From contig CM097882.1 in NCBI GenBank assembly GCA_044892505.1, positions 417,260,001 to 417,324,000 on the forward strand: a DNA stretch of 64,000 bases. The letters are read 5' to 3'. Below, piece after piece: positions 7,373 to 10,911 of the stretch (position 1 is its first letter; each line of letters begins with the position of its first letter). The position numbers and the translations under genes were made by a program. The notes beneath the pieces are model-generated. The model searched no databases. It worked only from the letters and a program-made list of their open reading frames with translations, and had not been told where the DNA came from. The stretch is from Schmidtea nova. Its lineage: Eukaryota.

Positions 7373-8790
7373 TGACATCTTGTCTTTGTTAACTTGGCTT
7401 GCAACTGCAATGTCTTTGTTAACTTGCATCTGTTTTGCAATGTCTTTGTTAGTATTGCACATGAATTGCAGCGTCAAAATGGGTAGGAAAATAAATATAT
7501 AGTACGTTGTGGTAGTTTAATTATTTTATTTTGACATCTTGAAGGTTTGAAAACATATACAAACACACATCTCAAATATCTTTCGCATGATATTTATATA
7601 GTTTTAAAAAATTTTGAACTCTTGAATAATTTTGAATATTTTTGAATATTTTTTATTAACTTGCATGTATGTCTTTGTTAACTTGTATCCACATTGCAAT
7701 GTCTTTGTTAACTTGCATATGTATTGCAATGTCTTTGTTAACTTGCATATGTATTGCAATGTCTTTGTTAACTTGCATATGTATTGTTTTGGATATACAA
7801 TGTCTCTGTTTNNNNNNNNNNNNNNNNNNNNNNNNNNNNNNNNNNNNNNNNNNNNNNNNNNNNNNNNNNNNNNNNNNNNNNNNNNNNNNNNNNNNNNNNN
7901 NNNNNNNNNNNNNNNNNNNNNNNNNNNNNNNNNNNNNNNNNNNNNNNNNNNNNNNNNNNNNNNNNNNNNNNNNNNNNNNNNNNNNNNNNNNNNNNNNNNN
8001 NNNNNNNNNNNNNNNNNNNNNNNNNNNNNNNNNNNNNNNATTTGTTAACTAGTATCTGCATTGCAATGTCTTTGTTAACTTGCATATGTATTGCAATGTC
8101 TTTGTTAACTTGCATCTGTATTGCAATGTCTTTGTAAGCATGTTGCTTACACTGCATTGGTACTGTAATGTCTTTGTTAAGGTGTTTTGGCAATGATATG
8201 TCTTTGTTTTATCAAATGATGCTGAATGAAGTTGAATTGTAATTAATGTTCGAGTAATAAGCTTTGGCAGATAAAAACCATCACAAAAGATGTTCTGCTA
8301 CTAGGGTTCTGCTAGTAAATGTTCTGTTCGTGCCTGTGTTTAGTTATTTTAGGAATTTGGCATTGAAATGTCTTTTTTAAGGGTTTTGGCAAGGAAATGT
8401 CTTTGTTTAGTTTTTTGGCATTGAAATGTCTTTGTTATGAAATTTGGCAATGAAATGTCTTTGTTTAGTTTTTGGCATTGAAATGTCTTTGTTATGAAAT
8501 TTGGCAATGAAATGTCTTTGTTTAGTTTTTGGCATTGAAATGTCTTTGTTATGAAATTTGGCAATGAAATGTCTTTGTTTAGTTTTTGGCATTGAAATGT
8601 CTTTGTTATGAAATTTGGCAATGAAATGTCTTTGTTATGAAATTTGGCAATGAAACGTCTTTGTTATTAAATTTGGCAATGAAATGTCTTTGTTTACGTT
8701 GCATGTGGATTGCAATGTCTTTGTTAATGTTGCACATGGATTGCAATGTCTTTGTTAATTTTGCACATGGATTGCAATGTCTTTGTTATG
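7373..8790. repeat. Satellite family with core (GC/GA)AATGTCTTTGTT: 30-bp units (7373-7450, 7655-8150, 8700-8790) and a 57-bp dimeric unit (8350-8690)
   Basis: Unit TTAACTTGCATATGTATTGCAATGTCTTTG. The 10-aa and 19-aa periodicities in the overlapping ORFs confirm 30 and 57 bp. Assembly gap at 7812-8039. Confidence 0.93.
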
Positions 8791-8819
8791 AGTTACCGAT
8801 GACGTGACTTATTTATAAA

Positions 8820-8880
8820 TTGAAATGAGTTATCGATGAGTCATAAGGATGAGTCATAATGGTGAGTCATCTATGAGTCA
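8820..8880. promoter_or_regulatory. Cluster of four AP-1-type TGAGTCA motifs
   Basis: Exact TGAGTCA at 8837, 8850, 8863, 8874, plus variants TGAGTTA and TGACGTGA just upstream. Function not shown. Confidence 0.5.
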
Positions 8881-8894
8881 TAAAAATAAAAAAT

Positions 8895-9030
8895 TTAATT
8901 TGTGTTTAAAAAAATTTGTGTTAAAAAAATTTGTGTTAAAATAAAATTTGTGTTAAAAAAATTTGTGTTAAAAAAATTTGTGTTAAAAAAATTTGTGTTA
9001 AAAAAATTTGTTAAAAAAATTTGTGTTAAA
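8895..9030. repeat. 14-16 bp A-tract satellite (AAAAAATTTGTGTT)n
   Basis: About 8 tandem units read directly. Confidence 0.9.
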
Positions 9031-9050
9031 AAAAAATTTAAAAAAAAATT

Positions 9051-9123
9051 TTTGGCGCGAAAAAAAATTTGAAAAAAAAATTTTTGGCGCGAAAAAAAAA
9101 ATTTGAAAATTTTTGGCGCGAAA
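9051..9123. promoter_or_regulatory. Three palindromic double-E2F motifs TTTGGCGCGAAA
   Basis: Exact copies at 9051, 9083, 9112. Each matches TTTSSCGC on both strands. Function inferred only. Confidence 0.5.
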
Positions 9124-9139
9124 AAAAATTTGTAATGTT

Positions 9140-10735
9140 TACAATTTTTTGAAGGTTTTGCACCCTTTGAAGGTTGAGCACCCACCATAGACCTTCGAGG
9201 GTATGACCAGCATACCTACCTCTCATATACCTTTCGAATGATATATATATTATAAGGTTTGAAAAAGGTTGAAGGTTTTGGACCCTTTGAAGGTTGAGCA
9301 CCCACCATAGACCTTCGAGGGTATGACCATTGTGTGCACATCTCAATTACCTTTTGTTTGATATATATATATATATATATTATAAGGTTTGAAAAAATTT
9401 GAAGGTTTTGGACCTTTTGAAGGTTAAGCACCCACCATAGACCTTCGAGCGTATGACCATTGTGTGCACATCTCAATTACCTTTTGTTTGATATATATAT
9501 TATAAGGTTTGAAAAAATTTGTAGGTTTTTTACCCCTTGAAGGTTGAGCACCCACCATACACCTTCGAGGATATGACTATCTTACTTTCCTCNNNNNNNN
9601 NNNNNNNNNNNNNNNNNNNNNNNNNNNNNNNNNNNNNNNNNNNNNNNNNNNNNNNNNNNNNNNNNNNNNNNNNNNNNNNNNNNNNNNNNNNNNNNNNNNN
9701 NNNNNNNNNNNNNNNNNNNNNNNNNNNNNNNNNNNNNAAGGTTTTGGACCCTTTGAAGGTTGAGCACCCACCATACACCTTCGAGGGTATGACCATTGTG
9801 TGCACATCTCAATTACCTTTTGTTTGATATATTACACACAAGGTTTAAAAAATGTTAAAGGTTTTTGACCCTTTGAAGGTTAAGCACTCACCATAGACCT
9901 TCGAGGGTAAAACCAACACACTTACCTCTCAATTACCTTTCGAATGATATATATATATATAAGGTTTGTAAAAGGTTGAAGGTTGAGCACCCTTTGAAGT
10001 TTGAGCACCCTTTGAAGGTTGAGCACCCTTTGAAGGTTGAGCACCCTTTGAAGGTTGAGCACCCACCATACACCTTCAAGGGTATGACCAACATACTTAA
10101 CTCTCAAATACCTTTCGAATGATATGTATATTATAATGTTTAAAAAAGGTTGAAGCTTATTGACCCCTTCGAAGGTCGAGGACCCACAATAGACCTTCGA
10201 GGGTATGACCATCTTACTTACCTCTCAATTACCTTTTGTTTGATATGTATATTTTAAGGATTGTAAAAGATTGAAGGTTTTTGACCCTTTGAAGGTTAAA
10301 GACCCTCCATACACCTTCGAGGGTATGACCGTCTTACTTACCTCTCAATTACCTTTCGAATGATATGTATATTATAAGGATTGTAAAAGGTTGAAGGTTG
10401 AGCACCCACCATACACCTTCAAGGGTATGACCAACATACTTAACTCTCAATTACCTTTTGTTTGATATGTATATTATAAGGATTGTAAAAGGTTGAAGGT
10501 TTTTGACCCTTTGAAGGTTAAGGACCCTCCATACACCTTCGAGGGTATGACCATCTTACTAACCTCTCAATTACCTTTCGAATGATATGTATATTATAAG
10601 GTTTGAAAAAGGTTGAAGGTTTTTGACCCTTCGACGGTCAAGAACCCTCCATAAGCCTTCGAGGGTATGAACATTGGATAGACCTCTCCAAGACCTTTCG
10701 AATGATACCCTTGTTTGAAGGTTTGACCTTATTTG
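9140..10735. repeat. About 120-bp tandem satellite with paired imperfect palindromes, plus an 18-bp sub-amplification at about 9975-10060
   Basis: Unit ...GACCCTTTGAAGGTTGAGCACCCACCATA(G/C)ACCTTCGAGGGTATGACC...CTCTCAATTACC... repeated about 12 times. The VLNLQR repeat in ORF 9922..10212 marks the 18-mer. Gap at 9593-9737. Confidence 0.93.
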
Positions 10736-10766
10736 ACCTTTGGAAATTCAAATTTAAAATTTGAAT

Positions 10767-10910
10767 TTGAAATGAGTCATCGCGATGAGTCATAAAAAAA
10801 TTTTCTAACCCCCTGGGGAGGGGGGAGGGGGAGGGGAGGGGGGAGGGGGAGGGGGAGGGGAGGGGGAGGGGGAGGGGGTATGTCTTTGTTATTAGTCATC
10901 GATGAGTCAT
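10767..10910. promoter_or_regulatory. AP-1 motif pair, G-tract and a further AP-1 motif
   Basis: TGAGTCA at 10773, 10786, 10903; TTAGTCA at 10892. Confidence 0.45.
10815..10878 (+). repeat. (G4-6A)n purine tract, potential G-quadruplex
   Basis: About 11 G-runs of 4-7 nt separated by single A. Confidence 0.9.
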
Positions 10911-10911
10911 A

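Follow-up and report, generated by a model that had tools for sequence, protein, structure and literature searches.

Repeat, motif and homology analysis of a 64,000-nucleotide stretch of the Schmidtea nova genome (GenBank assembly GCA_044892505.1, contig CM097882.1, positions 417,260,001 to 417,324,000; hereafter the window, with positions counted from its first letter) was centred on a 3.5-kb repeat block at 7373-10911, to which we assign a probability of roughly one half of being the cis-regulatory or the terminal part of a mobile element, multi-copy and decayed, of giant-transposon or virus-like kind. The reading is carried by the conservation of a short core in the main repeat family of the block, the extended flanks of its AP-1 sites, the comparison with control arrays, a distant paralog of the adjacent open reading frame (ORF) ORF136 with remnants of block modules beside it, and an adjoining IAP-type RING frame. 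The modules of the block were amplified in tandem and reshuffled, with an 11-bp core and the AP-1 heptamer kept and the linkers changed, and at least one gene beside the block, ORF136, is multi-copy. That the cores are putative protein-binding sites, and the block an enhancer-promoter or terminal control region of the element whose AP-1, E2F and G-box arrays would be read by host factors, is a proposal about evenly poised between right and wrong.

The order of motifs proposed by an earlier reading of these letters (the sequence-only reading) was borne out over 7373-10911, with all motifs on the + strand. Tandem arrays were delimited by Tandem Repeats Finder (TRF), the 120-bp units were anchored (n=12), and the copy numbers are minima because two N gaps, 7812-8039 and 9593-9737, lie inside the block. 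A 30-bp array of subfamily A, with the 11-bp core ATGTCTTTGTT enclosing the Sox-like CTTTGTT, occupies 7366-8200 (+) around the first gap, and a 28/29-bp higher-order array (B/B') with a 31-bp subfamily C follows at 8354-8788 (+), in which the core is unchanged and the spacers differ; TRF places the 28-31-bp arrays at 7381-8788 (+). CTTTGTT occurs 26 times in 7373-10911 (25 in 7384-8781 and one at 10884), and a 27th copy lies at 10916. Although order and counts are as claimed, the series of units is interrupted at 8213-8330 (-) by an inverted piece of another repeat family, the one that builds the foldback region at 0.5-6.6 kb, as recognised by sequence match (8213-8326 matches 3228-3335 at 83% over 115 bp, E 4e-27, and four other copies at 88-90%).

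Next in the series is an AP-1 cluster at 8789-8882 (+; TRF 13-bp array 8835-8870) with four exact TGAGTCA and three one-mismatch sites; the seven exact sites of the block are at 8837, 8850, 8863, 8874, 10773, 10786 and 10903. A 15-bp A-tract array at 8895-9035 (+; TRF 8897-9034) leads to three E2F-like TTTGGCGCGAAA sites set within an A-tract repeat at 9028-9132 (+; TRF 32-bp array 9028-9128), the only three of the window; TTTGGCGCG likewise is confined to 9051, 9083 and 9112. The stretch 9143-10750 (+; TRF 9148-10707) is filled by about twelve 120-bp units, dominated by AAGGT/ACCTT half-sites that form imperfect palindromes, and here CCTTTGAA was counted ten times in 9164-10508 (once elsewhere in the window), four of the ten belonging to an 18-bp sub-array at 9976-10064. 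The block is closed by a second AP-1 pair with an A-tract (10766-10800, +), a 64-bp (GGGGAG)n tract with ten GGGGAGGGG boxes (10815-10878, +; TRF), and a 32-bp unit of the 30-bp family with an AP-1 pair in its spacer, followed by the further core copy that gives the ATG of ORF136 (10880-10922, +). The ORF start expected at the end of the block is present, as an ATG at 10912, but it lies in this repeat-core copy. The closing modules were not independent elements as first listed, since 10880-10911 is homologous to 8777-8808, being a member of the 30-bp family whose spacer turned into an AP-1 pair, and 10766-10800 is homologous to 8820-8885, so that both are duplicates.

Tandem duplication multiplies any motif, and therefore conservation rather than count was examined. 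Among the 28 units (22 distinct) of the 28-31-bp family, the modal frequency of the 11-bp core is 0.979 against 0.60 in the other columns, a contrast inflated by the anchoring of the units on the core and by the omission of degenerate edge units (near 7470, near 7640 and at the 8039 gap); this conservation was reached by 0 of 100000 column permutations. Neutral-tree simulations, which presume uniform mutation, matched the overall divergence in 2164 of 12000 runs, and not one of these 2164 attained the observed core (maximum 0.917). Six subfamily representatives are identical at all 11 core positions at a mean spacer identity of 0.56, and every exact core is on the + strand. Separately, it was observed that a 14-bp motif of the foldback family, taken on its in-block strand, resembles the context of the 11-bp core (8250-8330, 1900-6520), which hints at a shared origin.

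The AP-1 sites tell a similar story of kept motif and changing linker: the last five sites of the cluster are spaced 11 or 13 bp apart, the heptamer is kept while the linkers of 4 and 6 nt vary, and extended A...T flanks accompany six of the seven sites of the block as against none of the six AP-1 sites elsewhere in the window. An AP-1 or E2F motif is absent from all 47 control arrays of the window; Sox/TCF occurs in 3/47. Random window stretches of unit length contained the motif in 28/19220 draws for AP-1 (13 bp; 0.0015) and 12/19155 for E2F (32 bp; 0.0006), and in 690/19161 (30 bp) and 2606/18861 (120 bp) for Sox/TCF. For the AP-1, E2F and core motifs, conservation or rarity exceeds what simple chance would give, and the joint chance of the motif set, which grows with the size of the panel from 0.002 (50 motifs) through 0.017 (150) to 0.14 (500), is suggestive, not decisive, of a set beyond coincidence. 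The (GGGGAG)n tract has a strong predicted potential for G-quadruplex formation, with a G4Hunter-type score of 3.36 that tops the window, and its GGGGAGGGG box, which we take to be Sp/KLF/MAZ-like, is found once elsewhere in the window.

The 120-bp unit carries two to six AAGGT/ACCTT half-sites against 0.25 expected, arranged in short imperfect palindrome arms only, and folding of three of the 12 units showed only weak structure (z -0.47, -2.47 and -1.79). The proposal of TCF as the selected motif of this unit did not hold, the octamer being intact in 7/12 units and outdone in conservation by 22/113 eight-column windows.

The genes beside the block extend the argument. ORF136 (10912-11322, +) is a 136-aa orphan with an H-x2-C-x3-C-x2-C cluster and gave no match among 1.84 billion representatives, Atlas, PDB and GTDB; it is a member of a repeated family because a decayed paralog with two stops was recovered 33 kb away (44174-44440, -), scoring 45.8 bits at 44365-44174, where the best of 300 shuffles scored 28.1. 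Outside the block, the A-tract and 30-bp modules have their best matches within ~210 bp downstream of this paralog (44139-44083 and 43964-43991); equally high scores were reached by 4/300 (A-tract) and 3/295 (30-bp) control arrays, and 7/300 and 5/295, respectively, landed beside the paralog. On the other side of the block, at 6935-7282 (+), a 115-aa open frame ends in an IAP-type C3HC4 RING (Pfam zf-C3HC4_3, E 9.6e-10; top PDB matches the cIAP2/XIAP RING, E 9.2e-9, residues 49-106), in which BIR was not matched. Of the adjacent orphan cluster first described, what stands is that its ORFs look like repetitive-element cargo, as the decayed ORF136 paralog and the IAP-type RING indicate.

Several points weigh against a control or end region of a mobile element. 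The joint chance rises to 0.14 when the panel holds 500 motifs, the names Sox/TCF, AP-1 and E2F are putative assignments by consensus sequence, and the number of independent module origins falls to about four because modules duplicate one another; to these are added the anchoring of the units and the uniform mutation presumed in simulation. The module remnants beside the paralog are suggestive only because they are AT-rich, lie downstream and not upstream, and one is reversed. The window showed no paired long terminal repeats (LTRs) or terminal inverted repeats (TIRs), and no gene for replication or mobility could be linked to the block, which leaves the proposed element without defined ends: no direct or inverted partner of any module occurs in the window (7 kb visible leftward, 53 kb rightward), a 13-mer scan for paired ends (6.7-7.4 kb against 13.4-14.8 kb) gave short AT-rich matches only, and searches of the flanking ORFs against Pfam, PHROGs and PDB tied no polymerase, helicase, capsid, integrase or transposase to the block. 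The last AP-1 site stands ~10 bp from the ATG, itself within a repeat core, and the enhancer function of the block is a prediction from sequence. It may also be that the block, though real and non-random, is a piece of some element that repeat libraries already contain.

Should the block nevertheless be such a region, the element would have inserted where transposons abound in an AT-rich invertebrate genome, and there its AP-1, E2F and G-box arrays would recruit host bZIP, E2F and Sp/KLF-type factors and its A-tracts would hold the DNA open. The block would then serve as a U3-like enhancer-promoter of the intronless accessory genes of the element, namely the IAP-type RING, ORF136 and the membrane ORF312, while a host factor, or a protein encoded by the element, may bind to the 11-bp core and to the palindromic 120-bp unit; the present copy would now be non-autonomous. 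The stronger form of this proposal is that the region is what remains of a giant virus-like element from a family not yet described, peculiar to this invertebrate lineage, whose orphan genes (ORF136, the membrane glycoprotein-like ORF312 and the IAP-type RING) stand under a multi-kilobase, tandem-built Sox/AP-1/E2F/Sp-type enhancer tuned to wounded, proliferating stem cells; this we consider doubtful.

In its working the block would most resemble the U3 region of an LTR or a baculovirus homologous region (hr), and the planarian Burro elements appear to be its closest lead, likened by description and not by sequence. Burro are giant Gypsy-like LTR retroelements with apoptosis and ubiquitin domains (BIR, BCL2, RING-type AIR1) and an env-like membrane domain; they are depicted with tandem repeats, and decayed fragments of them occur in Dugesiidae genomes (PMC6431247). 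An IAP-type RING, a membrane ORF, tandem repeats and decayed copies recall that description (PMC6431247), whereas the present locus is without the giant gag-PR-RT-RH-IN polyprotein (longest flanking ORF 312 aa), has no BIR, BCL2 or env match, and carries a gag-like piece with other fingers; as for LTRs generally, there is no direct copy of a module elsewhere in the window, with 7 kb visible to the left. Polinton/Maverick elements, described as abundant in planarians (PMC8532177), likewise have compact intronless ORFs in both orientations (PMC10175614 and PMC6431247), but beside the block nothing matched pPolB, ATPase, protease, integrase or capsid, and there was no TIR pair in the window, whose left side is truncated.

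Conserved cores with variable linkers also mark foldback ends (PMC5499845) and some satellites (PMC3694981), and for this reason they do not point to a transcription-factor enhancer in particular; a mobile-element control region, a foldback end and a satellite cannot be told apart by core conservation alone. The foldback end, in which the block would be one arm of a long terminal repeat of foldback, Mutator-like element (MULE) or Galileo type, with the cores as transposase-binding sites and the likeness to transcription-factor sites incidental, is held to be unlikely. Muta1 TIRs consist of 12-bp repeats with differences in the linkers, as in the block (PMC5499845), and Galileo TIR repeats contain THAP-binding sites (PMC3688188); both share tandem conserved cores and variable linkers with the block (PMC5499845, PMC3688188), and a foldback structure with 1760-bp arms (527-2286 / 4368-6127), with which the block has a 115-bp piece in common, adjoins it just upstream. 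Opposed to this are the lack of any inverted counterpart of a module, whether in the 53 kb that follow the block or in the 7 kb that precede it, the lack of a terminal motif and of a transposase among the flanking ORFs at 6.9-14 kb, and the presence of several unrelated modules in series; the joint AP-1, E2F and G-box arrays would also be left unexplained.

A compound minisatellite or satellite patch, with a conserved box promoting recombination of the arrays, motif matches due to chance and ORFs that are unrelated debris, seems equally improbable. Divergent nematode satellites have conserved boxes at monomer junctions (PMC3694981), and the Meloidogyne satellites described there combine divergent monomers around a short invariant box with higher-order repeats (PMC3694981); moreover, Sox/TCF is present in control arrays, the joint chance reaches its upper value with a large panel, the modules derive from one another and transposon debris fills the region. 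The arrays at hand differ from the satellites so described in being short, of several motif types and placed beside ORFs, and against a satellite patch speak the individual rarity of the AP-1 and E2F units (0.0015 and 0.0006), a G tract unequalled in the window, the module remnants beside the ORF136 paralog and the intactness of ORF312.

Least probable is that the block is an hr-like enhancer or origin from a DNA virus, endogenised or episomal, in which the imperfect 120-bp palindromes would be iterons bound by an initiator. In its favour are palindromic units flanked by bZIP sites as in baculovirus hrs (PMC13513840), an IAP-type RING and an intronless glycoprotein-like ORF nearby, and AT-rich and G4-prone tracts. 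Opposed to it are searches of Pfam, PHROGs and PDB in which no viral hallmark gene appeared, the weak folding of the 120-bp units and the place of the block within a host chromosome, ~8 kb from an intron-containing eIF3b gene. Baculovirus hr units are ~72 bp long and contain a 30-bp EcoRI palindrome, bZIP sites being interspersed, and their clusters of TPA-response (TRE) and cAMP-response (CRE) elements correlate with enhancer strength (PMC13513840); tandem imperfect palindromes with clustered bZIP sites (7 exact AP-1 sites here) are the common ground with that account, as against 120-bp weakly palindromic units, AP-1 sites that flank the array and are not inside the units, no viral core genes, and surroundings of host genes and transposons in place of the genome of a large DNA virus. 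No support was found for a replication origin or episome as the sequence-only reading had entertained it, the flanking ORFs being without an initiator helicase, polymerase or capsid match. In the control regions of polyomaviruses and papillomaviruses, too, AP-1 repeats stand in series with GC boxes and an AT-rich tract; the block is several times longer, chromosomal, and without a superfamily 3 (SF3) initiator or capsid gene.

In planarian strains that reproduce by fission, a mobile element is inherited only if it is active in the stem cells of the adult. If the block is indeed the control region of such an element, this native AP-1/E2F/Sox-like array would show how mobile elements take up signals of injury and of the cell cycle, and it would supply a ready enhancer for testing, and ORF136 and ORF312, being without detectable relatives, would mark an uncatalogued element family; were it a foldback end or satellite, it would be an ordinary repeat. 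Planarian LTR elements and Polintons are de-silenced in differentiation and upon PIWI loss (PMC8532177).

With regard to the remaining neighbours, a 65-aa frame without Pfam match (6768-6965) overlaps the start of the RING ORF in another frame, and no longer relative of the RING ORF was present among 38 candidates, near lengths not being searched. The CxxxCxxC of ORF136 resembles a radical-SAM motif, but this was set aside as the protein is too short and without Pfam match. A broken gag-like fragment (11288-11953, -) has two CxYHxxF/Y...AxxC-type fingers and a 5' end cut by an inverted duplication; its likeness to Gypsy gag is presumed, without Pfam match. The hairpin at 11900-11960 that cuts it folds at z -5.67, and a bacterial promoter/terminator scan there was blank and is uninformative. 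ORF312 (12507-13445, -) is an intact 312-aa orphan with a predicted C-terminal transmembrane segment (280-298, by hydropathy) and five N-glycosylation sequons; its frame length was reached in 0/1000 shuffles, and homologs were found neither among 794 candidates at near lengths (none at E<=0.01) nor in Atlas, PDB or phages. PHROGs returned only weak matches of unknown function for the flanking ORFs, and single-sequence AlphaFold models of the neighbouring ORFs were unusable (mean predicted local distance difference test 35.6 and 39.0). An 83-bp direct duplication and short GC-richer frames that diverge from ORF312 and are without Pfam match lie at 13539-14012 (72 aa at 13736-13954, 66 aa at 13812-14012); a match of the 72-aa ORF to 43594-43773 (E 0.91) was dropped as chance. 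A duplicated 144-bp piece at 14175-14637, part of a dispersed repeat also present at 55.2 and 59.1 kb, may mark the right edge of the ORF cluster.

Rfam gave no match over 1-20000 at E<=0.1, and therefore no hammerhead or Penelope signature; a tRNA scan found none, and DNA searches with the block modules were blank in phages, plasmids and GTDB genomes. A keyword search of open-licence literature did not find a description of the block, which cannot show its absence from print.

The window as a whole is AT-rich animal DNA (GC mostly 20-30%) with ten N gaps. Its host landmark is a divergent eIF3b gene with introns at 18.7-26.2 kb (in full 18674-26234), for which the nearest named match is a mollusc protein at 33% identity, two further proteins being 89% and 70% identical; introns read from it are ~50 nt, a combination that would suit a triclad flatworm as the probable host, and it is interrupted by a ~5-kb intron that holds a 298-bp tandem repeat (3 copies, 99%) and transposase pieces that we take to be ISXO2/Merlin-like. 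An exon of netrin/laminin-N type and remains of mariner, hAT and gypsy elements were also identified by Pfam, and the pol pieces nearest to the block, at 14.8-18 kb, are fragmented conventional gypsy. The foldback-like structure at 527-6127, with arms ~100% identical, a nested 366-bp pair and (TA)n on either side, is made of AT-rich units of ~600 bp that each carry a cluster of the TAGCAGAAC motif, and could be a recent foldback element or an assembly or amplification chimera. A probable LTR (TG...CA) at 206-460 adjoins a (TA)n tract and has, on the minus strand, a TGG that resembles a primer-binding site. A 674-aa ORF for an hAT transposase, still intact, lies between 658-bp perfect inverted repeats at 50015-54002, the right arm overlapping the ORF start, with a nested 74-bp inverted pair at 50672-51026. 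Miniature inverted-repeat transposable element-like, near-perfect palindromes of 130-200 bp occur at 24333-24461, 55254-55389 and 62094-62286, and a 265-aa single-exon hydrophobic ORF at 40708-41505, without Pfam match, resembles by eye a seven-transmembrane chemoreceptor.

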